Position numbers and translations under genes: made by a program. Positions 8,655-60,423 of a stretch of DNA of 64,000 nucleotides are shown one piece after another. Origin of the DNA: Candidatus Omnitrophota bacterium (GTDB lineage: Bacteria > Omnitrophota > Gorgyraeia > Zapsychrales > JANLHA01). Position 1 is the stretch's first letter, and each line of letters starts with the position of its first letter. The notes below the pieces were generated by a model. That model had not been told where the DNA came from. It worked only from the letters and a program-made list of their open reading frames with translations, and did no database searches. The stretch lies in NCBI GenBank assembly GCA_023143685.1, contig JAGLHE010000055.1, positions 14,984-78,983 on the forward strand, written 5' to 3'.

Positions 8655-8707
8655 AATTTTATTCCTGGATTCCTACTTTGACTATTCTGTCTTCTGTTCT
8701 CTATCTT

Positions 8708-9136
8708 TTACCGCTGTACACTAAAAAACATTTGCATCGCGGCAATTTGCTTAGCATCAACATCAACATTCACATCAGCACAACCCATATTATCGAGTAA
8801 TTTTGTTCCGCAAACTTCCAGATTCAGCACATCCCCGGCTGTGGCATGCCCCATAAACTCTGCCTTGACTTTTCCTATCACATACCGTGGCCGCTCCCCC
8901 TCTTTGACCCGGCTGACATGGTACAAAACAAGCGCGGCCTGGGCAGCGGCTTCGATTAATAACGTTTCAGGGAAGGTTTCACACTTCTGGCCGTACCCGA
9001 CGAACGGCCATTCATTGGCAGTAATATTTTTAATAGCAATAAGACTTTTGTCCTTTTTTATATCAATCACCCGGTCGATCAACAGCATCGGGTAAACATG
9101 TGGCAGGATTTGTTGTAGTTGATTGTGATTAAGCAT
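8708..9136 (-). CDS. FabZ/FabA-like 3-hydroxyacyl-ACP dehydratase (hotdog fold)
   Basis: LPHVYPMLLIDRV N-terminal motif and length typical of FabZ; first gene of the 9136-to-4902 minus-strand cluster. Confidence 0.6.
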   Translation of the reverse strand: MLNHNQLQQILPHVYPMLLIDRVIDIKKDKSLIAIKNITANEWPFVGYGQKCETFPETLLIEAAAQAALVLYHVSRVKEGERPRYVIGKVKAEFMGHATAGDVLNLEVCGTKLLDNMGCADVNVDVDAKQIAAMQMFFSVQR

Positions 9137-9396: not shown

Positions 9397-9630
9397 TTAA
9401 CACCGATTTTCGCAGGGCGCATATCCGCCATAATGAAAAACTGCATGAAAACTGCAGTCTTCAAAGTTTTTCTCTTCAAGCTGAGTTGTTTCTCTATTTG
9501 CAATCAACTTGCAAATTTCCTGGTGATACCTGGCCCCCTTTTGAGTCACAAAGACATCTGCGGCAAACGCGGCACTCGTAACTGCCAAAAAGCTCAGCAT
9601 CAAAACAACTGACATTGCTTTCTTTAACAT
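9397..9630 (-). CDS. Small secreted protein (signal peptide, 4 Cys), unknown function
   Basis: N-terminal hydrophobic segment followed by AFAAD; 77 aa. Confidence 0.35.
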   Translation of the reverse strand: MLKKAMSVVLMLSFLAVTSAAFAADVFVTQKGARYHQEICKLIANRETTQLEEKNFEDCSFHAVFHYGGYAPCENRC

Positions 9631-9729
9631 CTCATTTCCCCCTTTTTGTTTGTTTAACTTTTCTTCACCTGTTCAACACGTGTTAATATCCTGTTCCTCC
9701 CGTCGTAAGCACCCCGCCAACGACAAGAC

Positions 9730-11376
9730 TCATTGTTTCATTTCCAAAATACATTTCGTAAATTCACCATCCGTTAAAGCATCGATCATAGCTGTCAACT
9801 CATCCACGCGCAGCTGCTTATCCATTGCCCAGCGCGGGTCGGGCATCAAAGAAACCGCTGCCAATAAATCCACCTGCACTCGACGGCGCTCAAAATACAA
9901 CCTTGTCACCTGGTCTAAAATGTCTTCCCTTAACTCCACCATCAATTTTGAACGTGAATCAATGCTCGTCTGATCCGTGCTCCAAACAATGTCAGCCAGA
10001 TCCCATGACAGAGAAACACCCCACCCAAAATTGCTGTAAAATGTTTTATCATCCGGCGCAAGATAATGTTGTCCGCCACTGGTGTAGCTCCCATAAATAC
10101 TGTCAGATACCGTTCTGTTCTGATCACCATCCATGCTTACGCTCAAATCCGGCAACCACGCCTTTTTCCTGGATAACTCCCGCCATTCCTTAATTTTACC
10201 GGGGTGGACTTCAGCATAATCGATAGCCATTTTGTGAACTTCCTGGACAGAAGGTTCAAATCCTAAAACTTGTTGATACGAGGCTTGAAATTCATGAAAC
10301 GAAGATTGATTCAAAGAATTTGTTTGCAGTGCTTGACGTGGCTGAGCGCAATATTTTTCTTGATCTTTAGATTCAATAAAATCATCCGAAAAGAATAGCC
10401 CCTTATCGGTTCCGGCATACAGATTTCCCTTACCATCAGCAGCTAACGATTCAACGTCCGTTGTCTCCATCCCTTGATACAACGCCTTCCACTGATCCCC
10501 ATCCAGGAAGAAAACGCCTTTTGACGTTGCCACAACAATATTACTGTTCACCATAACCAACCGGGTTCCAAATTCGACCGGCAAACCATCCACAACCATT
10601 CGCTTCCATGCACTCCCTTGACCCTGACGAACAAAAACCCCAAAATCACTCAATACATACACATTGCCTTGATTAATATAAATATCCCGGATTTTTTGTT
10701 CCAGCTCCAACGCCTGGATACCATAAAATTCATCTTCAGACACTTCTTCCGACACCTTTGATCCTAACGAAAACATTTTTTCAACCAAACCATTCACGCT
10801 GCCTATCATATATACAGCTGACGCGCTGGCAGCATAGAGGTTCTGATCATCGACAGCCAATTCATAAACCGCGGTGTTTCCCAATTCACCTTCTTGTTTT
10901 TGCCAAACCGATTCATTGACACCTTTTTGAAATATCCCCCGGTTGGTTGCGACATAGACCTGTTCCCGCATCCGCGTAATATCCCAACACTGCTTTGCCA
11001 CAGCATCGGCTGAAAAGTAAATAAGCTCCCACCTGCGACCACCATCAGGGCTATAAAAAGCACCTTCATCTGTAGCAACATAAATTTCATCCGAATTAGT
11101 TGCGGGAATATAAATAGAATGAATTTCTTTCGAACCCCCGGAAAGGCCGCTAACAGCAAAAAACTCCTTACCTTTATTATTAGATCGGTAGAGAGTTTTA
11201 TGAGTTCCGGCAAACACAATATTGGGGTCATCAGGCGCAACAGCCAGGCTTGTAATTTCACTTTCGTAAATTCCGGAAGAAATTTTTTGCCAACCCTGAT
11301 CCTGCATCGAAAACCCAGAAGCTGTTACAGCAGTCATCAGCAGCAAATACACTTGTAGAACCTTGGAATATTGCAT
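9730..11376 (-). CDS. Secreted repeat protein with BNR/Asp-box-like motifs (Ycf48-like beta-propeller region), unknown function
   Basis: Signal peptide; motifs YRSNNKGKEF, SPDGGRRWEL, ATNRG. Confidence 0.45.
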   Translation of the reverse strand: MQYSKVLQVYLLLMTAVTASGFSMQDQGWQKISSGIYESEITSLAVAPDDPNIVFAGTHKTLYRSNNKGKEFFAVSGLSGGSKEIHSIYIPATNSDEIYVATDEGAFYSPDGGRRWELIYFSADAVAKQCWDITRMREQVYVATNRGIFQKGVNESVWQKQEGELGNTAVYELAVDDQNLYAASASAVYMIGSVNGLVEKMFSLGSKVSEEVSEDEFYGIQALELEQKIRDIYINQGNVYVLSDFGVFVRQGQGSAWKRMVVDGLPVEFGTRLVMVNSNIVVATSKGVFFLDGDQWKALYQGMETTDVESLAADGKGNLYAGTDKGLFFSDDFIESKDQEKYCAQPRQALQTNSLNQSSFHEFQASYQQVLGFEPSVQEVHKMAIDYAEVHPGKIKEWRELSRKKAWLPDLSVSMDGDQNRTVSDSIYGSYTSGGQHYLAPDDKTFYSNFGWGVSLSWDLADIVWSTDQTSIDSRSKLMVELREDILDQVTRLYFERRRVQVDLLAAVSLMPDPRWAMDKQLRVDELTAMIDALTDGEFTKCILEMKQ

Positions 11377-11420
11377 ATTAAAAACTCTATGAATTGTAAG
11401 TTAAGGATGAAAGATATGAA

Positions 11421-11720
11421 CTACGAGTCCCGGATAACATCCCGGTAAATCTTCTCAATGCTCACCAGCGACAAGGCATGTTGCATAGACTCCTTGATCG
11501 CAGGATTTTCCTTTTCAACCGCTAGAAGATACTGCTCGCAATACTCGAGCATGGCCTCCAGGCCTAACTGTTGACGCATTGCAAACAGGATGCTTAAGCC
11601 TGTGTAAAACGTCACCATTCTATCTGGAGTATTAAGTGAGGTATTTGATTTGAAGCTTGGGGAGGAATTCTGGCTTAAATTGCCAAGGGGTTCATCAAAA
11701 TTACGTTCATTTAAATTCAT
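11421..11720 (-). CDS. Hypothetical protein
   Basis: 99-aa ORF with no recognisable motif. Confidence 0.3.
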   Translation of the reverse strand: MNLNERNFDEPLGNLSQNSSPSFKSNTSLNTPDRMVTFYTGLSILFAMRQQLGLEAMLEYCEQYLLAVEKENPAIKESMQHALSLVSIEKIYRDVIRDS

Positions 11721-44753: not shown

Positions 44754-45278
44754 TTAGGCTCCTCCTTCACTAACGAACGAAAATAAAAATGCTAAAAGGA
44801 CGACCTGAATGATCCAGCCGATGATGCACACGCCAACCGCCCGACCAGTGCTTTTATAGTCAAGCGCCTGTCGCACTGCAATAACCATAGCGACCAGCAT
44901 CCAAATTCCAGCCACAGTGAAGACCAATTTAGTGAGCACCGGGATTATTCCTAAAACCCGTATCAGACCCGGTGCACTGGAAAAGCCGATCGTTCTTAAC
45001 AGTTCCCCATGATCGGCCTTTGTTTGCGCTTCGGGAAGGAATTTAGTGCCGATAAAATACGTGAGATACGCCCAGACATACCATCCCACTAACGCCACGA
45101 TTGTTCCCCAAAACAAATTTCTGCCTCCCATGGATATACTGCCGATGCCGGCAGCAAGGGAAGACAAAACCACCACGCCCATCGCCTGGCCTATGGACGT
45201 CTTATCAGCTTCCACCTCTTCATAAAGGTTCACATCTAACTTAGCTGCGCGAATCATGCGTTCAGTGAATTTCGACAC
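44754..45278 (-). CDS. Yip1-like membrane protein
   Basis: Four or five TM segments after a soluble N-terminus; 174 aa. Confidence 0.4.
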   Translation of the reverse strand: MSKFTERMIRAAKLDVNLYEEVEADKTSIGQAMGVVVLSSLAAGIGSISMGGRNLFWGTIVALVGWYVWAYLTYFIGTKFLPEAQTKADHGELLRTIGFSSAPGLIRVLGIIPVLTKLVFTVAGIWMLVAMVIAVRQALDYKSTGRAVGVCIIGWIIQVVLLAFLFSFVSEGGA

Positions 45279-45569: not shown

Positions 45570-45736
45570 TGCATACCTCCTCTCTTAACGAAGTTCTTTT
45601 TTTTAGAAGCTGTCTTTTCTGGGGCACATATACCAATATAATTTTACTCCAATAAAAAACCCTTCGCAACTAATTAAGCTACTAAGGACAAAATTAAATT
45701 TTTTATTTTCGTCTCGTTTGGGGTATCCCAACAAAT

Positions 45737-45797
45737 CATTGACTCACAACGGGTTAGAAGGTGGGGTGGCTGGCTGAAGCAAGTTAGAACCTGTTTC
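45737..45797. repeat. Cassette-boundary repeat, copy 1 (3' end of the Fic gene; the Fic stop codon lies inside it)
   Basis: cattgactcacaacgggttagaaggtggggtggctggctgaagcaagttagaacctgttt. Confidence 0.7.
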
Positions 45798-46806
45798 ATG
45801 CTAAACTGTACTTAACCGCCCGCGTTGTCCCCTCCTTAACTACGATACCACACTTAACTAACGGCGCAATAAGCTGATTCACCCTTGCCCTGTTTATTTG
45901 CATATATTCACAAATTTGGGCAGAACCCATAATGCCATGCCCGGAAAGAAGATTTAACAATTCTTCTTGCTTTGGTGTTAACCGCATTTTCTTTGCTGCT
46001 TTAGTGCGCTTAACCATTTTTAACCGACGAGATACTTCGTGAACAGAATCCAACAACCCCTCAGCCACATAATCAATCCAATAAGTATAATCCCCGTCCA
46101 TATCACGGGTCTGCTGAATCATATCATAATAGCGCCCTCGATCCGCTGCAAAAAAATCATCAAGGCCAAGGGTATACAACGGATCATATCCTTTTTCAAA
46201 AAGCAACCACTGAGACGCCACCCTGGCGACGCGCCCGTTTCCATCAACAAATGGATGAATGGTTACAAACTCATGGTGAAAAATAGCATTTATAACAATA
46301 GGATGATTTTCTTGAGATTTTTTAACCCAATTAAGAAGGCTAGACATGCGTTGCGCAACTTTTCCAGGAGCAGGCGGTGTACAGACAACGACATTTCTTG
46401 AATTAACAACATAATTCTGCACATGCCTGTATTTTCCACACTTGCTTTCTGCCAACATCCCATTAGTCATCATTTCATGGAGCCTTAACAATCTCTTCTC
46501 AGTTAAATTCTTGTCTCTATTTTGAAGAATCCACTTGACGGCTTTAATACAATTATTAACCTCTCGCTTTTGGTCTTCCTCTGCGATCACATTCTTATTA
46601 GCTGCCAACGCAACAACTTGATCAAAAGATAGCCTGTTACCTTCAATCCAGGTAGACGAGTGAACACTACGATTAATAAATTCTCTCTCTAGTCTAACCT
46701 GTAAAGGTAGAGTAATATCAGCGCGTTTGATAAAGGAAACCTGGGAAGCGATTTTCTCGCAACACTTCACAAAGCAATTTGACATTCGATATTGAGGATT
46801 AAGCAT
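45796..46806 (-). CDS. Fic family protein (AMPylation/Doc-like) with C-terminal wHTH
   Basis: Fic motif HPFVDGNGRVAR; the N-terminal extension in the ORF track overlaps repeat copy 2, so the internal start was chosen. Confidence 0.8.
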   Translation of the reverse strand: MLNPQYRMSNCFVKCCEKIASQVSFIKRADITLPLQVRLEREFINRSVHSSTWIEGNRLSFDQVVALAANKNVIAEEDQKREVNNCIKAVKWILQNRDKNLTEKRLLRLHEMMTNGMLAESKCGKYRHVQNYVVNSRNVVVCTPPAPGKVAQRMSSLLNWVKKSQENHPIVINAIFHHEFVTIHPFVDGNGRVARVASQWLLFEKGYDPLYTLGLDDFFAADRGRYYDMIQQTRDMDGDYTYWIDYVAEGLLDSVHEVSRRLKMVKRTKAAKKMRLTPKQEELLNLLSGHGIMGSAQICEYMQINRARVNQLIAPLVKCGIVVKEGTTRAVKYSLA

Positions 46807-46908
46807 AATGAAAGCATAACATATTGTATAGCTTTTGTATAGGATATTGTATAGGACGACTATCCAGGAGGCCGATTCTTCGTCTAATACCAAAAAAAAC
46901 CCGCCACA

Positions 46909-46974
46909 AGTCATTGACTCGCAACGGGGTAAGAGGTGGGGTCGGTGGCTGAAGCAGGTTAGAACCTGTTTAAC
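46909..46974. repeat. Cassette-boundary repeat, copy 2 (3' end of the NYN gene)
   Basis: agtcattgactcgcaacggggtaagaggtggggtcggtggctgaagcaggttagaacctgtttaac. Confidence 0.7.
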
Positions 46975-46990
46975 AATCTAAACCATTACT

Positions 46991-47623
46991 CTACCAGCTA
47001 TCTGGCTTATAAATTTCGTCATCCCCTACTTTGAACGGACTAGAAAGCAAATTATTGATATATTGTTTTTTGCCAATAGAGAAAGATTTTGGAGCAATTC
47101 TTGCCAATTCACTATTCTTTCTATTAAAAGGAAATGCAAAAAGAAAAGTTTTATCCTCAAAAATCCTTTCACACACTTCTACAGCAGGAAAAAGATCTGT
47201 GTCCCCAGAGACAACAACAATCTGATCACAATCATCGCAATGACAAAGTTCAAACATTTTAAGTGCAATGGAAACATCCGTTTCCTTTTCCTCATGTTTA
47301 AGAATGTTACTTTTACACCGATGACAATATACGTCTTTCTCCTTAAAACGCCCCCTTACGACCTTTATATTTAAACTTTCTAAACACTTAATGTAGGTTA
47401 AATGCCTTTCAATTTTTTCAGGATACCTAGACTCTAAGTAAAACGGTATGGCTGTAAAATAGTAAATATCTTGCAAAACTGCATCACGTCCAAATAAAGA
47501 CAGATAAGATTCACAAAGAGAACGTACGTTAAGCCATTTCGCCTTATACCGAGTTTTTTGCTCTAAACTTCGAATCGAGTGATATAAATTAAATCCATCA
47601 ATCAAAAAACAAACCCTCATCAT
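46991..47623 (-). CDS. NYN-domain protein (LabA/DUF88-like predicted RNase)
   Basis: CFLIDGFNLYH, TDVSIALKMFEL, VVVSGDTDLFPAV motifs. Confidence 0.65.
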   Translation of the reverse strand: MMRVCFLIDGFNLYHSIRSLEQKTRYKAKWLNVRSLCESYLSLFGRDAVLQDIYYFTAIPFYLESRYPEKIERHLTYIKCLESLNIKVVRGRFKEKDVYCHRCKSNILKHEEKETDVSIALKMFELCHCDDCDQIVVVSGDTDLFPAVEVCERIFEDKTFLFAFPFNRKNSELARIAPKSFSIGKKQYINNLLSSPFKVGDDEIYKPDSW

Positions 47624-47864
47624 AGTCCCCCTACAAAAGAAAACCTCCGGATCGTAACCCGGAGGTGGCCAGTGGTCTCCCACTGGGGATGAAATTTGTA
47701 TATATATTTAAATATCTCTTTATCCATTTAAAGTGTACACCATTTTATTCATCTGTACCACAAAATGCAAGACTTTTTTCAAAGCACTAAAAGTTGCCAA
47801 AAATCCTTTCGGAAAGCTATCAAAATCTTACCAAGCACCCGCCAAAACCATGTCTTTAAATATC

Positions 47865-47910
47865 CGTTTGAACCGGAGTGGCTGGCTGAAGCAGGTTAGA
47901 ACCTGTTTAA
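47865..47910. repeat. Cassette-boundary repeat, copy 3 (partial; 3' end of the kinase fragment)
   Basis: ggagtggctggctgaagcaggttagaacctgtttaa. Confidence 0.65.
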
Positions 47911-47961
47911 TACTTAATTAAATATTGTGTCCCCTTATTTTTTTACAAACAAACTTAATTT

Positions 47962-48519
47962 TCAAACATATTGCTTAATTAACGCTGTTAACCTATTAGC
48001 ATTCACAGGTTTTGTGATATACCCGTTCATTCCGGCATCTATACATTTACCCTCCACCCAATCCACCACATGAGCGGTTAAAGCGAGTATGGGAACATTT
48101 TTATCGATATCTCTTCTGATTATCTCTGCCGCTTCATACCCATCTATCCGGGGCATCTTTAAGTCCATAAGCACCAGGTCATATTTCTTTCTTTTCATCT
48201 CCTTAATAACCTCTTCGCCATTACACACAAACCGGATATGACATTCAGCATCAGCGAACAATTCCATCATCAATTTCCTGCTATCTTCATCATCTTCGGC
48301 TACCAGGATATTAACCCCGGCAAGGGCCACTTCCCCGTCAGGCCGCTCCAATAAAACTTCTTTGACTTCCTCTGCCGGAGCCCCCAACTCTTTCATTTTT
48401 AAACAAAATGAAAACTTGCTGCCCTTGCCCATCTGAGACTTCACGGCCATCTCTGAACCCATCTCTTTTACAAGCGTCCGCACGATATGCAGGCCCATCC
48501 CAACACCTTCTCTATCCAT
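47962..48519 (-). pseudogene. Truncated hybrid histidine kinase fragment (end of HATPase_c G2 box + receiver domain)
   Basis: Starts in GVGMGLHIV (G2 box) and is followed by a complete receiver (ILVAEDDE...DLVLMDLKMP...TKP); no HisKA or sensor lies upstream. Confidence 0.6.
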
Positions 48520-48553
48520 GCCTTTTTCTGCTTTATAAAATCGGACATAAGGT

Positions 48554-48907
48554 TCAAAAATATGAATTCTCTAACGTAATCCTAATATGATTCATACCCA
48601 ATGAATGCTGTACTTTTACTAACAAACTCTTTCCTCTAACCTTAAAATTCGGGATATCATCATAATAAGGTTTCAACATTTCAAATATCTTCTTATCCTC
48701 AATAAACCAAACCCCATATTTATAAACACCATAAGGCTGATGCGTAATCCCTAAATCATTCATAGTTACTCTTACTGAATGCTCACTCTTCCATCTTCGA
48801 AAATACTCCATAACATCACTAACTCGCACAATACCCTGCTCTGCAACAAATCTTAATATCTGCATCTTAATTAATTGTCTCTTCATCCTGAAACCTCCAA
48901 TCTCCAA
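48554..48907 (-). CDS. Hypothetical protein
   Basis: 117-aa ORF, no recognised motif. Confidence 0.3.
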   Translation of the reverse strand: MEIGGFRMKRQLIKMQILRFVAEQGIVRVSDVMEYFRRWKSEHSVRVTMNDLGITHQPYGVYKYGVWFIEDKKIFEMLKPYYDDIPNFKVRGKSLLVKVQHSLGMNHIRITLENSYF

Positions 48908-49269
48908 AATAATTTTATTCTCTAACTTTATATAATCTTCTCTTCAATGATACCTAAGGGTCGTTTAAGACCCCTATTTCTCAAATCAAAACGTTGGTTG
49001 AGAGAGAGGGGTCTTGAACAATCTGCGAACGCCAGTGACCAGATTCCCTTTGGTAGCATTGAAGTTAGAAGATTCATTTCCTTCATATGACTTTCACGAA
49101 TGAAACTTTAATGAAATTCTTGTGAGATTTCTAAAACTTCCAATCATCTAATAAAAAAGGACATACTCGTGGGTATCCCGCCACAATTATGCCCTCTTTA
49201 TACTGCTAAAATTTAGTTGATCAGACCAAATTTTCCTCAATAATCACAAAGATCAATTTATTTCCACTT

Positions 49270-49630
49270 CTACATATGTATGGTGAAAAGATTACCTTTT
49301 TAGCCAAAAATTATTAAGAAACCCAAAATTTCTTCCCCCTACTATATAATGGCGAGTAAAGTGCCTTTTTAGACAAAGTTTTTGAAAATAATTCAAAAAA
49401 ATCACTCCCCCTATATACTAATGTTGGAAAGAATGCGTTTTTAGACACAATTTCTGAAAATAATTTAAATTTTTCGCATTCATCTACAAAACTTGATTGA
49501 TAAGCAATAACCTTAAACCCATCTAGAATGGCATTTGCGAAACAATAAAAAACCGCACCCTCTATATACATATGTTAGAAGAAATGCGTTTTTTGCCAAA
49601 ATTTTTTAAAATAATTAAAAATTTATAAAA
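49270..49630. repeat. Degenerate tandem repeat array (4 copies of a roughly 65-70 bp unit, plus a degenerate gap)
   Basis: Units begin ctacatatgtatgg / ctactatataatgg / ctatatactaatgttgg / ctatatacatatgttag; each contains ...tgcgtttttagacac...gaaaataatt. Confidence 0.6.
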
Positions 49631-49890
49631 TCTTGCCTCTTGCTTGTTATTTATTGTCACATGGAAGAACTAAAAATGAAAATAAATATCATGGTAATTA
49701 AAATTGAAGAAGGCAAAATAAAAGGTGGCTCGTCCGTCACACAAAAGGAGTTCTAGAAGCCACAATACTTGATCAGACAAAAGAACAATTGCAAAAAGTC
49801 TAACAATGCACCACGACTGATTTTTATTACTTATCCTATTTAGGTTCGGACACTAGCAGAATTGCTCGCAAAATTTTTACATATTAATAT

Positions 49891-50436
49891 TTATGTATTA
49901 TTATCTTTCTTACGTAACGTCTTTTTTATTTTTAAAAAAGTTGCGTCAAAAGCAACAGAAGTAATTTTTGCAGTAACCTTATATAAATTCTTAGAATTAT
50001 TTGATATTAAAGACCCCGTATTAATTAAAATAGCTTTACCTGAATGCAAAGATTTCTTAATGATTTTAGATGGGGCTAAAGCTTTATTCTTTACAACTTC
50101 TATTCTTTGCTCAGCTCGTTGTTTTATCTCGGAAAGTTTACGGTAAATCTCCTCAATAACTGCCATCAGAATAAATCCAATAACAACAGAAAGCAAAAAA
50201 CACATTCCAATTAAAACATTTCCAAATACCTTGGGAATATCTACGTTAGAACCAATAGCACTAATTTTTGTTGTAAAGAATGAAAATAAAGATAAAAATA
50301 TAATCATAAAAAAACATATTCTAACAAGAGAAATAATTATTTTTCTAATTGGTTCTGGATATTTATCTATAACTTTTTTAACAGAATGATAGGATATCCC
50401 AATAAGAAAACCACGTATTAGCCCAGTAATTTTCAT
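49891..50436 (-). CDS. Hypothetical membrane protein (4 TM)
   Basis: Hydrophobic segments; overlaps the upstream small gene by 4 nt. Confidence 0.35.
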   Translation of the reverse strand: MKITGLIRGFLIGISYHSVKKVIDKYPEPIRKIIISLVRICFFMIIFLSLFSFFTTKISAIGSNVDIPKVFGNVLIGMCFLLSVVIGFILMAVIEEIYRKLSEIKQRAEQRIEVVKNKALAPSKIIKKSLHSGKAILINTGSLISNNSKNLYKVTAKITSVAFDATFLKIKKTLRKKDNNT

Positions 50437-50618
50437 TTATTATTAGCCCTATTTCCTTTCCCTCTTTTCCGTCCCCCTAAATAACTAATTACATTACTTA
50501 TTATTACAAAAGTTAAAATTAAAGCAACTGCCCAGCCTGCTATAGGCAACATTATTAGAATTCCCCATAATATTGCAATTAACACAAGCGCAAAAAAAAT
50601 AACTCCAAATGAACTCAT
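50433..50618 (-). CDS. Small two-TM membrane protein
   Basis: 61 aa, two hydrophobic helices, basic C-terminus. Confidence 0.3.
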   Translation of the reverse strand: MSSFGVIFFALVLIAILWGILIMLPIAGWAVALILTFVIISNVISYLGGRKRGKGNRANNK

Positions 50619-50948
50619 TTTATCCCCTCCTAATTTGTTTTAATAACAAATATAATATATCCCACAATATATTTGGAGTAAAGCATTAATCCTAGGCTAA
50701 TTCCTAATATTTTCTTTATAAATACCTTAATGTTATTAAAGAAATATTGAAATAAGGGCTTGCTTTCTAACATATTGTGGATAGTGCCTTTCTGTGGACT
50801 GCTCTTCTACCAGACCACATCATTTGGATAACTTTTTAAGTTACCCACACAATCCACAACACTGCGACTAGTTTTATTTTAAACACACAGAATTTATATG
50901 ATCAGATAATAATTTAGGAATAATGACAAGAAAGGATTTTAAAAGACA

Positions 50949-51272
50949 TTACGACATTTGGAGAAACTTTACACCCTTCTCATCAATAACTTGAAGAAGA
51001 CGGCTGGCAGGACCATTGGGTTTATTTATATCTAATTCCCATTTTTGTATTGTGGTAGATTTGGTATTTAAAATATATGCAAGCACGCTTTGACTAACAT
51101 GTATTTTCCGTCTAATTCTTCGGATATCCCTTGCTGTATATGCTTTGGGCTGAGGATATTTCAACTTATTAAATTTCCGCATAGACTCAGAAACATCCAT
51201 CACCTCGGATAAACTGCTAAGTTCATCCTCAACAATTTTTCTTATTTCATCTTTATCTCTTCTCTGGCTCAT
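50949..51272 (-). CDS. higA: HigA-like HTH antitoxin (addiction-module antidote family)
   Basis: C-terminal HTH VSQSVLAYILNTKSTTIQKWE; downstream of and overlapping the toxin gene. Confidence 0.6.
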   Translation of the reverse strand: MSQRRDKDEIRKIVEDELSSLSEVMDVSESMRKFNKLKYPQPKAYTARDIRRIRRKIHVSQSVLAYILNTKSTTIQKWELDINKPNGPASRLLQVIDEKGVKFLQMS

Positions 51273-51681
51273 AATGAATTTCCTCGAAAATATTCTTTTT
51301 TACTGCATTATTTATTATTTCTTCCGTAAATTTCTCATACTGCTGTGATAAAATCTTCAAATACTTAAATTCTTCTTTAGTTAAGTTCTCTTTATCTCCT
51401 TTTGAAAAGATATAGACTGCAATAGCCCATTTATCATTTTCCCAGAAGACAATATTTCGAAAACCTCCACTTTTTCCCTTACCTTCTTTGGCAACCCTAA
51501 CCTTATATAATTTTGCACCTAAGTTGTCTTTCTTGTGCTTATGAAAGTTTTCAAAAAGTTGCTTTGAATACTTAGCTTTATCAACTTTTTCATGCTTAAG
51601 CTCTTTCTTCAATTTAGTAACAAAAGAGCGATTCAGCAAATATCTTATTTTCATTCCTCTATCCTGTTTAAAGTATATCAT
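51253..51681 (-). CDS. higB: HigB-like RelE/ParE-superfamily toxin (addiction-module killer family)
   Basis: LYKVRVAKEGKGKSGGFRNIVFWENDKWAIAVYIFSKGDKENL matches the killer-protein core. Confidence 0.6.
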   Translation of the reverse strand: MIYFKQDRGMKIRYLLNRSFVTKLKKELKHEKVDKAKYSKQLFENFHKHKKDNLGAKLYKVRVAKEGKGKSGGFRNIVFWENDKWAIAVYIFSKGDKENLTKEEFKYLKILSQQYEKFTEEIINNAVKKNIFEEIHYEPEKR

Positions 51682-51754
51682 CTAATCATACACTTTACAA
51701 ATATTAAATTAATGCCGTATTAATATTAGTTTCACAAAATTGCTAACAACAATA

Positions 51755-52702
51755 TTAAGGCTTATCATAAACTTTAACCGTAAATGATTGAAAACTTATT
51801 TTTTCAAAGCACTCCATAAAAAAAATCAACTTTTTAAAATAAATCTTCCTATCTTTTTCATTAACATGGAATATTGTATCAAAATTCTTCAAATCACCAC
51901 CGGCAAAAAAAGACATCCATGCAGACCACAAACAAATTGTTCGAGGCGAATGGCAACCTTTTAAACCGTCTAATGATGGTCCCATATATACAACTATTCC
52001 ATTTTCTTCTTTCCAGCAATCATTAAATTTCAACTTAAACTGATTCTCAAAAAAATAATTCCACAATCGCTCTATTACGGCGATATTTGAATTTGAACTA
52101 TATTTTTTTTCTATCGCCTCTTGAATTTTCAAAAGAAAATTATTTAATATCGTAATAATTTTTACAAGATACAAGCTATTTATCTGTAATTTCTCTTCTG
52201 CTTGTGCTCCAGCTTGCTTTAAGTAAGTTTCATTTGAAATTAGATCATTATGAATTAAACAATTCCTTCTTGCTATTGATTCTCTGATCTGCTCCCAATC
52301 GTTTCCCCCAAGGTCAATTTCTATTTGCAACAATTTGCGAACCTTCTTAATCTTATCTTTAATGCATCTATTTTCAATCTGCAAAAGATATTCTTCTAAG
52401 ATGTATTCTTTAAATTGTTTTTCCTCAAAATTGTTCCTGTTTTGTGCAAAACGCTTATCAATTAATATCTCTTTTACCTTTTTTGATGTTAAGATTTCAT
52501 AAGGCCTAGCCAGTAAATATTCTTTTATAGTATCGATTAAAGATGCTTCAAAATAGGCTAATATAAGAGGCAAAAATGATTTTAAGATTAATGAATTTTG
52601 ATTTGTTTGTAAGAGAGTAGCAATTTCGGATAGATTAGAAGTTTTCTTTTGAATATGACGAATTAGATTATCTTTTGTGAGCAGATCAACGTTTTCAAAC
52701 AT
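51755..52702 (-). CDS. Hypothetical protein with a HEPN-like Rx4H motif (Abi_2/AbiD-F-like candidate)
   Basis: ESIARRNCLIHND (R-x4-H) in a predicted helical protein of 315 aa. Confidence 0.35.
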   Translation of the reverse strand: MFENVDLLTKDNLIRHIQKKTSNLSEIATLLQTNQNSLILKSFLPLILAYFEASLIDTIKEYLLARPYEILTSKKVKEILIDKRFAQNRNNFEEKQFKEYILEEYLLQIENRCIKDKIKKVRKLLQIEIDLGGNDWEQIRESIARRNCLIHNDLISNETYLKQAGAQAEEKLQINSLYLVKIITILNNFLLKIQEAIEKKYSSNSNIAVIERLWNYFFENQFKLKFNDCWKEENGIVVYMGPSLDGLKGCHSPRTICLWSAWMSFFAGGDLKNFDTIFHVNEKDRKIYFKKLIFFMECFEKISFQSFTVKVYDKP

Positions 52703-52917
52703 ATTTTACCTTTCTATTTTATGCCGAACAATTATTATACGATAGTCGCTTTTACTGGCTGTTTTGTTATCAATTACTAAAACACTAACATTTTTATCAA
52801 TTTTTGTCCATTTTTCGGACATTTTTATTATATTCCGTTATAAAGTATCACTTTAAAATATTAGCAAATATTGCGACTGTCCTACGACATAAAATTTTTG
52901 CAATACTGAACATAAAC

Positions 52918-53571
52918 TTAAATTTCTACACTTCCATTAAAACCCACTTCAACCTCCCCAAGAAGCTCACCAAACCGTGCCAGTTGCATCCTTTCTTCTC
53001 CCTGTCGAATAATGTCCAATAATTTACGAAGAGGGAAAAGTTTAACAATAACAGGGTCTTCTTTATTATTTCTTAAGAATTTTTTGATGGGCTTTGGAAG
53101 ACTCAAAATTCTGAGAAGCTTGGCGATATAAGACCAATCTTCTCCTGTGATCTTGGAAAGACCACGAACAGTATTAATTCCATGTGCTTCTTTTAATCTC
53201 AGATAATATTCTGCCTTATCCAGAGGGAAATACTCTAAACGGTTAAGATGCGATTGATGCTTTTTCCAAACCTTTTGTTCTATTGTTTCAATATGAGTTA
53301 AATCTTCGGGGCGGTATCCCATGCAGAATTTCTGCCTGCGACTTTTTATAATTATATAGAAGGGGAATTCTGTCCAGTATGTTCTAGGCTGTATTTTTTC
53401 GTATCTTTGCACATATCTTATATATTCGAACATTTCTGCAGAATTAAACCCTATCACTTCCTTTTCAGGCAAAAGAAAACCTTCGTGCAAACCGTTTTTG
53501 TGGCACAGTTCGCACGAAGGTAACATATGGGGTGGATGACTGGTAGTAGAAACCGCGCCCTTCTGAGCCAC
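52918..53571 (-). CDS. ParB-like HTH protein (paralog 1), N-terminus overlaps a copy of the tRNA-His 3' att core
   Basis: LSKITGEDWSYIAKLLRILSLPKPIKKFL resembles the ParB/Spo0J HTH (LRLL.LPE.I); about 55-60% identical to 56659..57231. Confidence 0.5.
   Translation of the reverse strand: MAQKGAVSTTSHPPHMLPSCELCHKNGLHEGFLLPEKEVIGFNSAEMFEYIRYVQRYEKIQPRTYWTEFPFYIIIKSRRQKFCMGYRPEDLTHIETIEQKVWKKHQSHLNRLEYFPLDKAEYYLRLKEAHGINTVRGLSKITGEDWSYIAKLLRILSLPKPIKKFLRNNKEDPVIVKLFPLRKLLDIIRQGEERMQLARFGELLGEVEVGFNGSVEI
53519..53539. repeat. Direct repeat of the tRNA-His 3' end plus 9 downstream nt (att core copy)
   Basis: gtaacatatggggtggatgac, identical to 57258-57278. Confidence 0.75.
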
Positions 53572-53661
53572 AAGTAAAAATCATTTTTTTAAAGTCTCCT
53601 GCCATATACTCTGATATATTAACTCCCGCAATATATTCTCTGCTTATCTCTCTCAATAACT

Positions 53662-54894
53662 TTAGTTCACATTCATTGGCTTTAATTTATCTTCAAGGCT
53701 TAAATGATATGCATGATAATCTGGGCTATCTTCTTCATTATCCATGCGACAGTGCTCAAAAGACCTTCCTCTACGCTTTGGACCGAACACTCTGGCAAAC
53801 TCACCTTGAAACGCAAGAAAGGTATTCCAGTCCTTATCATGTCGTTGTTTATCATTATAATCTTTATGCCAAGGTTTTCGTCCATATTCATCAAAAAAAT
53901 CAGCTCGCTTATTATCATACCCAATAATTATCTCACTCGAAAAAGTAACTGATCTTGGATCTGGCATTAAAAGATAACCATTACCTAGCTTATCCCATTC
54001 TCGATAAGGAATAACTTCTTCCGGGTAAAGCCATTCTTTTTTTGCTGCCGCTACATACCTATACGCTCTTTTCTTTACGATATAATTTATCTCATTTACT
54101 TCGATTTCTGATAACATTCTTTTAGTTTGAATTTGAGTAAAATTAAACATAGCCGACCTAAACATATTGGGATGTGGCCTAAGGACTCTTGGATTCTCGT
54201 AAGGATTTCTAATCCATGATAGATTAGTTAGTATAAGCATTTTATTCAAACTTAATGGGAACAATGTATGTGTTCCCATAAAAGCTATGTCCGGATCTCT
54301 ATGCCTGAGGCACCATTTCGAATTTGGTAAGCAACTTTTATTATATACTGTAACAGGATGATCAGAAATTATAAATTTGGTATCTGAGTCAGAAGCATCG
54401 ACTATGTTCCAAATACATTCAGTCCATAAAGCACAAAAAAGTTGACGAAACTCCTGCATTTTAAACAGTACAAGGTTCTTATCAGATAACCTTACAATTT
54501 CGCCTAACCAATTAAGACCTTTTAAAGTACGTAACTTTTGAATGCTCATGTACAGTAACAGATTTCTAAATGCATCACCATCAACACTTGGATGCTCAAA
54601 ATTCGTGAAGTATTCTATAGACTCCCTCCCGGAAGAGTCTATCTGACCAAAAAATTTTTGTTCTATTTCAGTTGATTCCCAGTTCCCAAAAGCTGTTGTA
54701 TATAAATCATCGACACAAAAACAACTTCGCGGTCCCCACCGAAGCAAAGCTTTCCGTGCGTACATTCCCTTTTTTGTCGATTTTCGCTCAGGATTAAGGT
54801 CTAAATAATAATACTTCTTTTCCTTATAGTCTTCAGGAATAAACCGATATTGGTACCACTTCGGCACATAATGATTTCTTGTGTACTCTGCCAA
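53662..54894 (-). CDS. DUF4238-like protein (family used as the single-gene anti-phage system Rst_DUF4238)
   Basis: N-terminal NHYVPKWYQYRF matches the HYVP.FY..F signature of DUF4238; 410 aa. Confidence 0.5.
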   Translation of the reverse strand: MAEYTRNHYVPKWYQYRFIPEDYKEKKYYYLDLNPERKSTKKGMYARKALLRWGPRSCFCVDDLYTTAFGNWESTEIEQKFFGQIDSSGRESIEYFTNFEHPSVDGDAFRNLLLYMSIQKLRTLKGLNWLGEIVRLSDKNLVLFKMQEFRQLFCALWTECIWNIVDASDSDTKFIISDHPVTVYNKSCLPNSKWCLRHRDPDIAFMGTHTLFPLSLNKMLILTNLSWIRNPYENPRVLRPHPNMFRSAMFNFTQIQTKRMLSEIEVNEINYIVKKRAYRYVAAAKKEWLYPEEVIPYREWDKLGNGYLLMPDPRSVTFSSEIIIGYDNKRADFFDEYGRKPWHKDYNDKQRHDKDWNTFLAFQGEFARVFGPKRRGRSFEHCRMDNEEDSPDYHAYHLSLEDKLKPMNVN

Positions 54895-54988
54895 CTTCTT
54901 CTCTCTCCCATTTATTGTTACTTATACCCCACCAACCACCCCGTCCGACCTGAACAAGGCGATCCCCATTAAAAACAATTCAATAAAT

Positions 54989-55804
54989 CTATCCTAACAA
55001 TTGTGCAATCCTCTCGAAAGCATCTTCCCGGACATTGCTAATAAAATAATCCGTTCCGTTTTCCCGCTCAACAGCAACCGGGCCTTTGTCATCTTTGTGC
55101 GCGAAAAAGGCTTTGATGTTGCTAAGAACCTTTTTGCCTTCCTTGCGATTTTCGATAAACTCTTTGACCTCATTCACCATCTTTGTTTTATCCGGGCAGA
55201 AGCGCAGCATAAAATAGACATAATAAAGGTCTTTTCGCTTTTTGTCCTCGTTTTCACGCAAGACAAAGGTAAGCAATTTATGAAAAACGAATACCGATTC
55301 TGTCGGGATCTGAACCTCCTGTGAGAAAAATTCGATCTTCCTGGTATATTCAAGTACAATTTCAAAATGTTTAATAGTGTTGAGTACAATCTCTTTGCCA
55401 ATCAGCTTCTCATGGATATGCTTTGGAGGATTCAGCACAGTAATAAATTCTACCTCTGCCTTTTCATTAGCCTCTTTGCCTTTGACAACTGGAACAAACG
55501 GCACCATCCTGCCCATATCTACGTGGCGTTCACTATATCCCAATTTTCTAACCCGATCAGCAATAGATTCATCACCATTATAACTTACCAATGTTACGCC
55601 AAAATCCATATCGGTCGTAGTCAGCGGTGTTGAAGATTGTAAAACGCCTGTTCCCAGACCTTGTCCAGTTAATTCTTTGGGCCAGACATGCTTTTGATAT
55701 AAATATGGAATCCACCCGCCAACCAGTACAAGATAAGGTAAAAAGTCACTTAGATCATCAATAACCTTGCGTAACAATTTTTCTGTTGGATAACCTTCAA
55801 CCAA
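54989..55804 (-). CDS. AbiEii-like nucleotidyltransferase toxin (DUF1814 family) candidate
   Basis: LVGGWIPYLY...TTDMDF (GG...D.D NTase motif); 271 aa; overlaps the upstream wHTH gene by 8 nt. Confidence 0.45.
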   Translation of the reverse strand: MVEGYPTEKLLRKVIDDLSDFLPYLVLVGGWIPYLYQKHVWPKELTGQGLGTGVLQSSTPLTTTDMDFGVTLVSYNGDESIADRVRKLGYSERHVDMGRMVPFVPVVKGKEANEKAEVEFITVLNPPKHIHEKLIGKEIVLNTIKHFEIVLEYTRKIEFFSQEVQIPTESVFVFHKLLTFVLRENEDKKRKDLYYVYFMLRFCPDKTKMVNEVKEFIENRKEGKKVLSNIKAFFAHKDDKGPVAVERENGTDYFISNVREDAFERIAQLLG

Positions 55805-56468
55805 TTTCCACCTCTTTCTCTTTGAGGACTTTTAATAAATAGTCAGCGTGTTCTCGACCTCGTTGAGGAAAATGATATAAATCCAAATAAAGTTGAAGAT
55901 TTGAAACAACGGATAGCCCTTTTATTTTCTGTTTGTGAAAAAAAACCGAGTTTTTGTAATATGGTTTGATAAAACAGATATTGCCGCCTCTTTTTAATTC
56001 TTTTAAATCCAACGCCTGCCGGATTTCCAGAGACATTTCTTTGAAACAGTGACTATCCAAATAACAGTACGTCACCGGGGTATTGACATAATTACTGATT
56101 AAATTGGCTCCAGTATGAAGGGTTAAAGCGTATTTGTCTTCCCATTTTCTATTTTCCAGGAAAACTTTCATTGTCTTTAAAATGTCACTTTCACTGTAAT
56201 ATAGATGGTTTTCGTTAAGTTCAAAATTGTAAACCCGAAGCCATTCATTGATCAAGCCTTCTTTGTCAGTGAGTTGGCTGTATGCCTTCCTACCGGATGT
56301 GACCCCTCCTACAAAGCCTTTTTTCCTTAATTCCGCTAATACTTGGGCTGCCCGGCTCCTGCCCACATTAAATTCAGCTTCGAAATCACGGACCGTCCAC
56401 TTGCGCTGCGGCTCTGCAAGCATAGCCCGAATAACTACCGTGGCTTTATCACTAAAAATAGATTTCAT
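55797..56468 (-). CDS. AbiEi-like wHTH antitoxin/transcriptional regulator candidate
   Basis: N-terminal wHTH (RSRAAQVLAELRKKGFV), about 220 aa; operon partner of the NTase. Confidence 0.4.
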   Translation of the reverse strand: MKSIFSDKATVVIRAMLAEPQRKWTVRDFEAEFNVGRSRAAQVLAELRKKGFVGGVTSGRKAYSQLTDKEGLINEWLRVYNFELNENHLYYSESDILKTMKVFLENRKWEDKYALTLHTGANLISNYVNTPVTYCYLDSHCFKEMSLEIRQALDLKELKRGGNICFIKPYYKNSVFFHKQKIKGLSVVSNLQLYLDLYHFPQRGREHADYLLKVLKEKEVEIG

Positions 56469-56658
56469 AACGACTTCCCTTCCAAGAGTAAATGTCTACT
56501 TATTATAATTGTCCGATATTTAACGGACATATCAACATAATGGACATTATGACATTTATTAAAACAATGTCAAGATTTTGATTGTTATATTCATTTTCCA
56601 TTTGTTTCACCTTCAATGAATTTACCCGGACTTTAATATGACAAATATTCTTACATTG

Positions 56659-57231
56659 TCAAATTCTTACATCTATCAGCCCCTGTTCTTCCATGAACTC
56701 TCGAAAACGAATTATTTGAAGCGATTCTTCGCCCTGCCGGACAATATCTAACAATATTTTGAAATTGAAAAGCTTTACAACAGAAGGATCACTTTTATTA
56801 TTGCGGAGAAAATCCTTGATCTGTTCCGGCAAACCCAAGAGTCTAAGAACCTTGGCGATATATGACCACTCTTCACCTGTAATCGCGGAAAGGCCACGAA
56901 CCGTATTTACGCCATGAGCCTCTTTCAGCCTCAAATATAGTTCAGCTTTATCAAGAGGAAACCGATCTAAACGGTTAAGAAAGCCTTGATGCTTTTTCAA
57001 GGCTTTCTGGTTAATAGTATCAATATGGGCAAGGTCTTCCGGGCGATAGCCAAAACGGAAATGCTTCTTATGATTTTCCATAGCAAAATAAAAAGGGAAT
57101 TCACACCAATACGTGCGGGGTGGAATAGTAGCGTATCGCTGAATATAACGGACATATTCCAGCATTTCTTCAGAAGAGAATTCTACGTAGTCTTTGCTCT
57201 CTAAAGAAAAACTCCCACACGAGCTGTGGCA
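56659..57231 (-). CDS. ParB-like HTH protein (paralog 2), adjacent to tRNA-His
   Basis: LSAITGEEWSYIAKVLRLLGLPEQIKDFL; the track start (57309) reads through the tRNA, so the true start is downstream (GTG near 57231 or Met at MLEYVRY). Confidence 0.5.
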   Translation of the reverse strand, partial: CHSSCGSFSLESKDYVEFSSEEMLEYVRYIQRYATIPPRTYWCEFPFYFAMENHKKHFRFGYRPEDLAHIDTINQKALKKHQGFLNRLDRFPLDKAELYLRLKEAHGVNTVRGLSAITGEEWSYIAKVLRLLGLPEQIKDFLRNNKSDPSVVKLFNFKILLDIVRQGEESLQIIRFREFMEEQGLIDVRI

Positions 57232-57265
57232 CACAAGTGCGCCGGTTCGCGTGGGAGTAACATAT

Positions 57266-57340
57266 GGGGTGGATGACGGGATTTGAACCCGCGACCGCCT
57301 GAACCACAATCAGGAGCGCTACCACTGCGCTACATCCACC
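57266..57340 (-). tRNA. tRNA-His (anticodon GTG), with G-1 and encoded CCA
   Basis: Acceptor GTGGATG/CATCCAC, anticodon arm CCTGA-TTGTGGT-TCAGG, T-arm GCGGG-TTCAAAT-CCCGT. Confidence 0.9.
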
Positions 57341-60229: not shown

Positions 60230-60360
60230 ACTTGAAGTAAGCATTAATTGGCAAACCCTGCGTAAGCAGGGGACGCTTAAGCCACGGATCCGATTCGTAT
60301 TACACGCTTTACCCCTACCTTCACAGAAATTCATCAGGGGCCGGATAGCCGGGTTATTAA
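60230..60360 (+). ncRNA. Candidate c-di-GMP-I (GEMM) riboswitch in the 5' leader of the receiver gene
   Basis: GGCAAACC + GNRA hairpin (CCCTGC-GUAA-GCAGGG) + GGACGCUUAAGCCACGG, matching the GEMM-I conserved core GGCAAACC..GGACGCAAAGCCACGG; a downstream CCCCGGAUUUUUU terminator-like stretch precedes the SD. Confidence 0.4.
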
Positions 60361-60423
60361 ACAATCTTTAAAGAAAAGATTTTTTAATTCCCCGGATTTT
60401 TTATTGCCGAGGGAAAACCCGAC

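Follow-up and report, generated by a model that had tools for sequence, protein, structure and literature searches.

Omnitrophota form a large uncultured phylum of very small, possibly host-dependent bacteria. Among the described systems that gather accessory genes into arrays, integrons are the closest to the locus considered here. Their recombination site, attC, carries an R'' box (RYYYAAC) by the end of the open reading frame (ORF) and an inverted R' box (GTTRRRY) distally, the whole site measuring 57-141 nt. As a single strand it folds into an imperfect palindrome, with the R and L boxes paired, the central spacer unpaired and a variable structure at the tip. A complete integron also possesses attI and, beside the array, intI, whose product is a tyrosine recombinase with an IntI-specific insertion. 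The structure of attC sites is conserved and their sequence poorly so; integron cassettes rarely possess their own promoters, and most attC clusters that have no integron-integrase (CALINs) are not near intI remnants (PMC4889954). The present analysis deals with a short repeat in a 64-kb stretch of DNA from a Candidatus Omnitrophota bacterium (assembly GCA_023143685.1, contig JAGLHE010000055.1, positions 14,984 to 78,983 of the forward strand), termed the window below. Here, three genes in a row on the minus strand, encoding a Fic-domain protein, a NYN-domain protein and a 5'-truncated hybrid kinase with its receiver domain (kinase-REC), are each followed by one copy of the repeat. The reading favoured, tentatively and with slightly less than even confidence, is that these copies are the gene-proximal halves of an attC-like cassette-boundary element, and that together they form a small, probably fossil, CALIN-like array devoid of integrase.

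Three copies of the repeat in the window

The window was analysed by repeat-finding, by core-pattern matching with up to 3 mismatches, with shuffled controls, and with a profile built from relatives of the repeat. The repeat search identifies three direct copies on the + strand, at 45731-45796, 46906-46971 and 47843-47908. The first two are 88% identical across 66 nt and similar over ~75 nt, part of a hairpin included. The third is far more diverged outside the core, and its alignment has only the 3' 32-41 nt in common with the others. The core of the window copies reads TGGGGTCGCTGGCTGAAGnnGGTTAGAACCTGTTTrAT. Its 25-nt version, GGCTGAAGCAGGTTAGAACCTGTTT, has three matches in the window at up to 3 mismatches, versus none in 100 shuffles. 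Neither this 25-nt core, at the same tolerance, nor the profile detects a fourth copy in the window, and a further ~8 kb of this genome is likewise free of copies, bringing the total covered to ~72 kb. The copies are spaced by 1175 and 937 nt and all lie within 2.2 kb on one strand, an arrangement that corresponds to the CALIN definition of at least two sites within 4 kb on one strand.

Relative to the genes, the copies are found 0-50 nt past the three stops. Copy 1 shares its last bases with the stop codon of Fic (45796-45798), and the NYN and kinase-REC genes stop at 46991 and 47962, respectively. An initial annotation, made from the sequence alone, had placed the repeat directly 3' of three successive minus-strand genes and the Fic stop codon inside the repeat, and it was correct on both counts; the identities that it gave to the three genes are confirmed by Pfam (see the table). 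The CAGGTT/AACCTG palindrome that it described is real. The GTTAAAC core-like site is not there: the near-invariant box of the repeat is GTTAGAAC, and GTTTAAC appears in copy 2 only.

The kinase-REC gene covers HATPase_c profile positions 70-110 of 111, followed by a complete receiver domain. Its homology to the kinase of a related locus (L016; loci are cited by number) reaches 48558, at the stop codon (48554-48556) of the first gene of an adjacent low-GC island. Because the homology ends at the stop of the island gene, and because L016 possesses a full kinase, a receiver and the same motif arrangement, the fragment is, as judged from homology, a native gene cut by the island and not by cassette recombination. 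The proposal that it represents a fragment cassette is therefore not retained.

The start of the Fic gene is called at 46893 or 46785 by gene callers, the latter being more plausible. The three TTGTATAG repeats just upstream of this likely start look like a promoter or operator of Fic itself, with the C-terminal winged helix-turn-helix (wHTH) of the protein as a candidate autoregulator; Fic would therefore be an independent transcription unit.

The element in other genomes

An exact core scan of 185,579 species genomes yields four loci, one per genome, two of them in named Omnitrophota. A looser core pattern yields 29 more loci in metagenomes, among which L011 and L030 look like chance matches. 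Through the core, 31 further element-bearing loci are thus known, mostly Omnitrophota-like. These genomes are highly divergent, with common proteins 25-40% identical and a locus GC content of 0.35-0.51. The aligned core of the family spans ~40 nt and reads TGGGGTCGCT GGCTGAAG nnG GTTAGAAC Cnn TTT rAT. In the alignment, 20 of the 46 columns are at least 90% conserved, six of them invariant, a conservation that is partly by construction because the core itself was the probe for all loci; the GGGGTCGCT and TTTrAT flanks lay outside the probe. No Rfam family overlaps the repeats, whether the gathering threshold is applied or E is relaxed to 10, and collections of plasmids, phages and viral contigs contain no match to the element. 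A literature search for integrons together with Omnitrophota returned nothing relevant, and no paper matching the element was found. The ~40-nt core appears to be undescribed.

With the core read on the + strand, a minus-strand ORF ends between -16 and +132 nt from its right end in 28 unique cases, mostly between -16 and +37 nt, the stop being sometimes the TAA of TTCTAAC. All 31 gene-adjacent copies share the same orientation relative to the gene, and the copies that adjoin no minus-strand ORF are mostly located at the end of a contig or locus. Same-orientation arrays with a spacing of 300-1800 nt are revealed by the profile search in L014 (four copies), L031 and L013 (three each), L008, L015, L005, L002 and L016. 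The longest case, L017, continues into L025; it comprises 10 units or more of one gene each, and its core, GGCTCCGCaTGCTGAACGAGGTCAGAACCTATTT, has diverged. The genes adjoining the element are accessory and mixed: Fic (three loci), NYN (two loci), receiver domains, OsmC, cupin, DJ-1, ankyrin, tetratricopeptide repeats, NlpC/P60, NUDIX, metallo-β-lactamase fold, methyltransferase, hydrolase, peptidase C39, ANT-like, and many without a Pfam match. A tRNA-His gene lies upstream, in the orientation of the genes, in L001, L003, L019 and the window, with different intervening genes in each. The closest homologue of the window Fic (L007, 46% identity) lacks the element, whereas distant ones (L019 and L031, 28-29%) possess it; the element is thus not simply following the gene tree.

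The bases around GTTAGAAC form a small palindrome with some compensatory changes (AGG/CCT, ACG/CGT, AAG/CTT). In this stem, 86% of the cells are paired and 10 cells are changed on both sides, a number reached by none of 500 shuffles. Neither strand is favoured as RNA, since G.T and A.C exceptions are equally common. Further downstream on the gene strand, a hairpin followed by a T-run is found within 118 nt after the core in 17 of the 47 copies (36%), compared to 21 of 235 control windows (9%), a ~4-fold enrichment, and a strong intrinsic terminator directly follows copy 2. The alternative raised by the initial annotation, that of a termination element, is therefore partly right.

Such observations could also be accommodated by an RNA or termination module of the 3' untranslated region (UTR). 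The core would be transcribed at the mRNA end as a small hairpin whose loop is conserved, with a likewise conserved single-stranded C-rich tail, usually before an intrinsic terminator, and would serve in mRNA 3'-end formation or stability, or in the binding of a protein or small RNA; the arrays would then group co-regulated accessory genes. The strictly fixed orientation of the core, 0-50 nt past stops, the terminators, some covariation in the hairpin and the look of each unit as an independent transcription unit fit this explanation, as do the absence of a nearby recombinase and the recurrence of the same gene families with the element. Yet ~55 other genes of the window do without the element, which clusters in accessory arrays. 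The equal frequency of G.T and A.C mismatches in the stem, the closest Fic homologue devoid of the element, the lack of any Rfam match at E up to 10, and a distal inverted box that occurs in a subset of copies (see below) and has no obvious RNA role also argue against it. A 3'-UTR module is regarded as unlikely, while being the strongest of the competing explanations.

The extragenic location just past stop codons, the small hairpin with its invariant loop and variable, covarying stem, and the 8-10-bp terminal inverted boxes found ~100 nt apart in some copies are reminiscent of selfish repeats, such as repetitive extragenic palindromes (REPs), their doublets (REPINs) or miniature inverted-repeat transposable elements (MITEs). 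These settle near gene 3' ends and terminators and would be moved in trans, for instance by a REP-associated tyrosine transposase (RAYT) or another HUH enzyme recognising the hairpin. Insertion sequences (ISs) of the IS481 and ISL3 types abut the element in L004 and L008, as ISs do with REPs. The copy number of the element is low, however, with one exact core per genome in 4 of the 185,579 species genomes, and the three clustered copies of the window have no companion elsewhere in the ~72 kb of this genome. The orientation relative to the upstream gene is always identical. A GTAG-type 5' tetranucleotide is lacking, the whole core forms no inverted doublets, and the window's gene tables list no Y1 transposase. 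An origin of this kind seems distinctly improbable.

In L004, the IS481-like element has a terminal inverted repeat (1073-1120 and 2321-2365) that also stands alone, as a remnant, just 3' of tRNA-His in L003 (1330-1420). In L017 (reverse complement), a second repeat of 110-160 nt is located at 655-800, 1389-1494, 8640-8750, 9560-9725 and 10420-10585, with 82-86% identity among copies. It starts with GTTCAGCA, the inverse of the core's TGCTGAAC, and interrupts several elements, separating the GGCTCCCC head from the remaining core.

Other identities were considered for the repeat and rejected. A tRNA or tmRNA fragment was ruled out by ARAGORN, Rfam and a search with the tRNA-His 3' end, and a by-eye resemblance to T- and D-arms failed. 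A coding sequence (open + frame GRWLKxVRTCL) was dismissed on account of equally conserved third positions, an unrelated upstream sequence and stops in two of three frames. As for promoters of the sigma-54 or sigma-70 kind, the repeat lacks the -12 GC and scores no higher than background in a promoter scan. The copies are all direct and never inverted, which excludes a 38-bp inverted repeat of the Tn3 type (GGGG start). An IS end was discarded, the inverted repeats of the L004 IS481 ending 17 nt outside the core, and a CRISPR repeat is excluded by the 300-1800 nt spacing with intervening genes.

Likeness to attC and gain or loss of units

A minority of the family resembles attC sites. An exact inverted box, GTTCTAAC or GTTCGAAC, is present 72-101 nt from the core in 6 of the 47 copies (~13%), versus 0.4% of shuffles. 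Imperfect palindromes that a 9-10-bp pairing of the boxes closes, and whose apex is a terminator, are formed on folding by the elements of L013 and L015, by some units of L017 and by L055b (z from -2.1 to -5.4). On the gene strand, these members display the cassette order: ORF, stop, RYYYAAC-like box, arm, variable apex and GTTRRR box. The gene-strand core (GTTCTAAC CTTC TTCAGCC) moreover resembles the left-hand consensus of the classical 59-base elements.

Gain or loss of a unit is documented in one pair of related loci. L032 and L017 are 99.6% identical over 6.2 kb, and two element copies of L032 enclose a unit of 871 nt, with a gene for 185 aa, that L017 lacks; L017 harbours, at that site, a single hybrid element in which the distal part of one copy is combined with the other's core. 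One unit, comprising gene, core, terminator and distal box, is common to L015 and L023, which diverge just past the distal box, the expected cassette boundary. In L013 (325-354), a partial core abuts the final 45 nt of a toxin gene, which L031 has intact, and the joint shows microhomology; recombination and an ordinary microhomology deletion explain this junction equally well. Comparison between strains, as suggested by the initial annotation, thus reveals one unit gained or lost between L017 and L032, while the window array, present in public collections also as GCA_030641635.1 and as an ENA scaffold, does not vary among the assemblies found for this population.

The favoured reading would assemble these data as follows. 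In Candidatus Omnitrophota and relatives, a boundary element would work like, and may descend from, the attC of integrons. Its full-length members, of ~90-125 nt, would comprise, on the gene strand and in this order, the stop codon, the GTTCTAAC box within a small hairpin, a conserved arm (CTTCAGCCAGCGACCCC), a variable hairpin, in many cases an intrinsic terminator, and an inverted GTTAGAAC box. Units, each made of one element and a gene (at times a few genes), would accumulate head to tail in one orientation, bringing together unrelated accessory genes. The window array would then consist of three units (kinase-REC, NYN and Fic) with decayed distal halves, each with a terminator of its own and Fic apparently with its own promoter. 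Given this decay, site-specific recombination would probably no longer move the window units. We infer that the element serves, or once served, as a recombination site acted on by a recombinase encoded elsewhere, most likely a tyrosine integrase of the integron type, and a large serine recombinase offers a lead. Present-day turnover of units is consistent with plain homologous recombination between copies.

Several results weigh against this reading. The crossover between L017 and L032 took place in the shared central (terminator) region, at neither box, and homologous recombination thus fits better than an integron-type exchange. No tyrosine recombinase is found in the 64-kb window or in ~45 loci by phmmer, Pfam or gene tables. 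The RYYYAAC-like proximal box TTCTAAC is present in the three window copies, which lack the distal inverted box: the best candidates match 5-6 of 10 positions within 165 nt, and none reaches at least 7 of 8. Folded as single-stranded DNA on either strand, as the initial annotation had advised, these copies form no long hairpin (z -0.8 to +0.3), and nothing is seen but the small hairpin, to which copy 2 adds the terminator. Over 39 copies of the family, complementarity of the core arm to the distal 170 nt does not exceed that to shuffled sequence (mean z -0.02); one copy lies below -2, and those of the window score +0.24, +0.37 and +1.44. The doubt already expressed there about a classical attC is hence justified. 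The family keeps its sequence rather than its structure, the reverse of attC sites, and part of this conservation follows from the use of the core as a probe for every locus. Units carry their own terminators (17/47 copies). Lastly, Fic, NYN and kinase-REC recur beside the element in several genomes, so some pairs of gene and element could be vertically inherited. The idea of a cassette-like array, in sum, stands in that the family separates unrelated accessory genes in same-strand arrays, with units gained or lost and an attC-like minority; it fails to find a recombinase, or a crossover at the boxes.

A stronger version holds that the copies are functional classical attC sites, and the array a true CALIN, on whose sites an IntI from another part of the genome still acts. 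The grouping of the sites on one strand, the TTCTAAC box at the stop codon and the attC-like fold of full-length relatives would support it. The window copies themselves are devoid of R', L' and fold, the family conserves sequence more than structure, and phmmer finds no IntI in the window and L001-L033, all of which make this version very doubtful.

The search for recombinases used phmmer with IntI1 and XerD sequences, at E up to 0.1, against six-frame translations of the window and L001-L033, and gave no hit. An intI-like recombinase, which the initial annotation had advised looking for in the upstream flank and elsewhere in the genome, is not found in the 64 kb by phmmer, Pfam or gene tables, and Pfam scans and gene tables of the window contain no PF00589, integrase, transposase or Y1 enzyme. 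In the scan of loci, L025 alone encodes a resolvase-domain protein, a large serine recombinase located ~3 kb past the end of the array. Among four distinct loci with homologues of this recombinase, two (L053 and L055) harbour elements, diverged and in part full-length, that lie 6-9 kb upstream with the relative geometry unchanged; no motif is present in the other two (L050-52 and L054). In L025, L053 and L055, motif copies and recombinase are on the same strand, and the cassette genes are divergent from the recombinase. This enzyme is a lead only, as common phylogeny could explain its vicinity to the arrays. A possible extension is an integron-like gene capture in Omnitrophota and neighbours that would dispense with IntI, rely on a sequence-specific ~40-nt boundary with a built-in terminator, and could involve the large serine recombinase (L025, L053, L055); the chance of this being the case is judged slim.

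In L050-L055, the recombinase genes (~10001-11700) are called as two to three consecutive ORFs in all homologue loci, a resolvase domain preceding a Zn-ribbon domain. This split suggests a conserved frameshift, a recoding event or a pseudogenisation.

The occurrence of tRNA-His upstream in four genomes, with direct repeats oriented like the tRNA, raises yet another explanation: the copies would be att-site scars left by successive islands integrated at tRNA-His, or dif-like Xer sites flanking modules of the pdif type or integrative mobile elements exploiting Xer (IMEX). No local recombinase is needed in this case, and the core is readable as 11-6-11, with an outer right arm, TGTTTAAT, that resembles XerD arms. 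Against it, the last 23 nt of tRNA-His are found only in the tRNA itself (up to 3 mismatches), and ARAGORN and Rfam detect nothing tRNA-like at the repeats. The cumulative GC skew is monotonic across the window, which is thus not a replication terminus. The central box is invariant and the arms are variable, the opposite of Xer sites, in which two conserved 11-bp arms surround a spacer of 6-8 bp, and the units are single genes without integrases. Scars or Xer sites of this sort are the least credible of the explanations weighed, and highly improbable.

Surroundings of the array

The coordinates of the array, of its genes and of the main neighbouring features are gathered in the table.

Table 1. 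Features of the array and its surroundings in the window (positions count from the first letter of the 64-kb stretch).
Feature	Coordinates	Strand	Remarks
Element copy 1	45731..45800	+	core 45757-45800; nhmmer E 1.7e-13; last bases overlapped by Fic stop
Element copy 2	46906..46975	+	core 46932-46975; nhmmer E 2.9e-13; 16-20 nt past NYN stop
Element copy 3	47871..47912	+	core alone conserved; nhmmer E 4.4e-14; ~50 nt past kinase-REC stop
Fic-domain gene, C-terminal wHTH	45796..46893	-	Pfam E 2.7e-20; HPFVDGNGR motif
NYN-domain gene, 209 aa	46991..47620	-	Pfam E 9e-10
5'-truncated hybrid kinase-receiver gene	47962..48570	-	last ~56 aa of ATPase domain (HATPase_c tail) and intact receiver; ATG ORF 47962-48519
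Weaker terminator-like hairpin and T-run	45654..45688	-	~105 nt past copy 1
Three direct TTGTATAG repeats (CTATACAA on gene strand)	46823..46860	+	12-13 nt apart, just upstream of likely Fic start
GTCTAAT, sole weak candidate for decayed distal inverted box of copy 2	46878..46884	+	scores below thresholds of box searches
Intrinsic terminator directly after copy 2 on gene strand	46888..46928	-	13-bp stem, then T8; half of stem inside 66-nt repeat
Double hairpin and T-run between copy 3 and NYN start	47636..47713	-	predicted to terminate kinase-REC unit
Low-GC island between tRNA-His and truncated kinase	48554..57264		GC 0.29-0.31 at 49-53 kb; no motif copy; context, outside array
tRNA-His	57265..57339	-	upstream of array, oriented like array genes

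The 77-nt region of the double hairpin (47636-47713) is 80% identical to L026 566-641, which lies at a similar distance from the L026 motif copy in inverted orientation.

The low-GC island is densely filled with genes of the toxin-antitoxin or abortive-infection type (RelE/MqsA-like, HEPN, DUF4238 and AbiEi/AbiEii-like) and also contains two ParB-HTH genes. No integrase is found among them by Pfam scans or in gene tables. The contigs of related assemblies break at both island borders (L035, L049), and the tRNA-side part of the island differs between the metagenome-assembled genome (L036) and the ENA scaffold (L037). A 1-kb ORF-free stretch of the island contains four direct copies of an AT-rich repeat of ~70-78 nt (49255-49624; 62-79% identity, spacing 69-151 nt), on which Tandem Repeats Finder makes no call, and a 22-nt inverted repeat (48963-49019) adjoins them. 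These repeats are iteron-like and may represent the replication origin of an inserted element. The two ParB-HTH ORFs (52918-53571 and 56659-57309) are paralogous, with 57% identity over 207 aa; the second overlaps tRNA-His and is made shorter by gene callers.

On the other side, a Yip1-family gene (44754-45278) adjoins the array. Its homologues, 83-91% identical at the protein level, are found in wholly unrelated contexts, one of them (L048) being flanked by IS3 copies, and the gene appears, from this distribution, to be horizontally mobile. Their contexts, unrelated and without the motif, make them useless for comparing orthologous loci, and DUF748, the other anchor tried, has a single distant homologue only. 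Farther away, a c-di-GMP-I riboswitch (Rfam RF01051, 45.6 bits) is located at 60240-60361 on the + strand, upstream of a 136-aa ORF.

Comparison with described systems

Should the element be a cassette boundary, the phylum would possess an integron-analogous gene-shuffling system with a distinctive and easily searchable site. The site would provide a way to catalogue mobile accessory genes (Fic, NYN, toxin-antitoxin, effector-like) from metagenomes, and would raise the question of which recombinase reads a site keeping its sequence instead of its fold. If it is a 3'-UTR module, it would constitute an unusually conserved post-transcriptional signal common to unrelated genes.

Among known systems, the array shares most with REPs, Xer modules, tRNA islands and integrons, each in part. 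Like REPs and REPINs mobilised by RAYTs, the element is a short extragenic hairpin just past stops, sometimes a terminator, and a hot spot for IS insertion. It differs from them by its low, clustered copy number and fixed gene orientation, and by the lack of a GTAG head, of inverted whole-unit doublets and of a RAYT in view; REPs are dispersed over the genome in many copies and in both orientations relative to genes. Xer modules, such as those bounded by pdif sites in Acinetobacter plasmids or the IMEX inserted at dif, similarly associate small accessory or toxin-antitoxin modules with a short conserved site and have no recombinase in or beside the modules. However, pdif sites alternate in orientation and chromosomal dif is located at the terminus, where the GC skew switches, whereas the repeats described here are direct, without a skew switch, and combine an invariant centre with variable arms. 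With tandem islands at tRNA genes, which are delimited by direct repeats of the tRNA 3' end, the array has in common its position downstream of tRNA-His, direct repeats in the tRNA orientation, and a gene content that varies among related genomes; in contrast to such islands, the repeat contains no tRNA-His fragment, and the units are single genes devoid of integrases.

The likeness to integrons and CALINs extends to more traits. In both, unrelated accessory genes stand singly on the same strand, each followed by a repeat resembling a recombination site, with the stop codon beside or inside an RYYYAAC-like box (TTCTAAC here). Full members of the family measure 90-125 nt and present inverted boxes containing AAC/GTT around a variable apex. 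The sequence type is lineage-specific, the content of units varies between strains and, as in most CALINs, no integrase is nearby. The differences are equally clear. Most copies, including the three of the window, are the gene-proximal half only and unfolded; the element keeps 35-40 nt of primary sequence where attC keeps structure; its apex is often a real intrinsic terminator, and its units have their own promoters. No IntI is seen in any locus, and the documented gain or loss of a unit involved a crossover away from the boxes.

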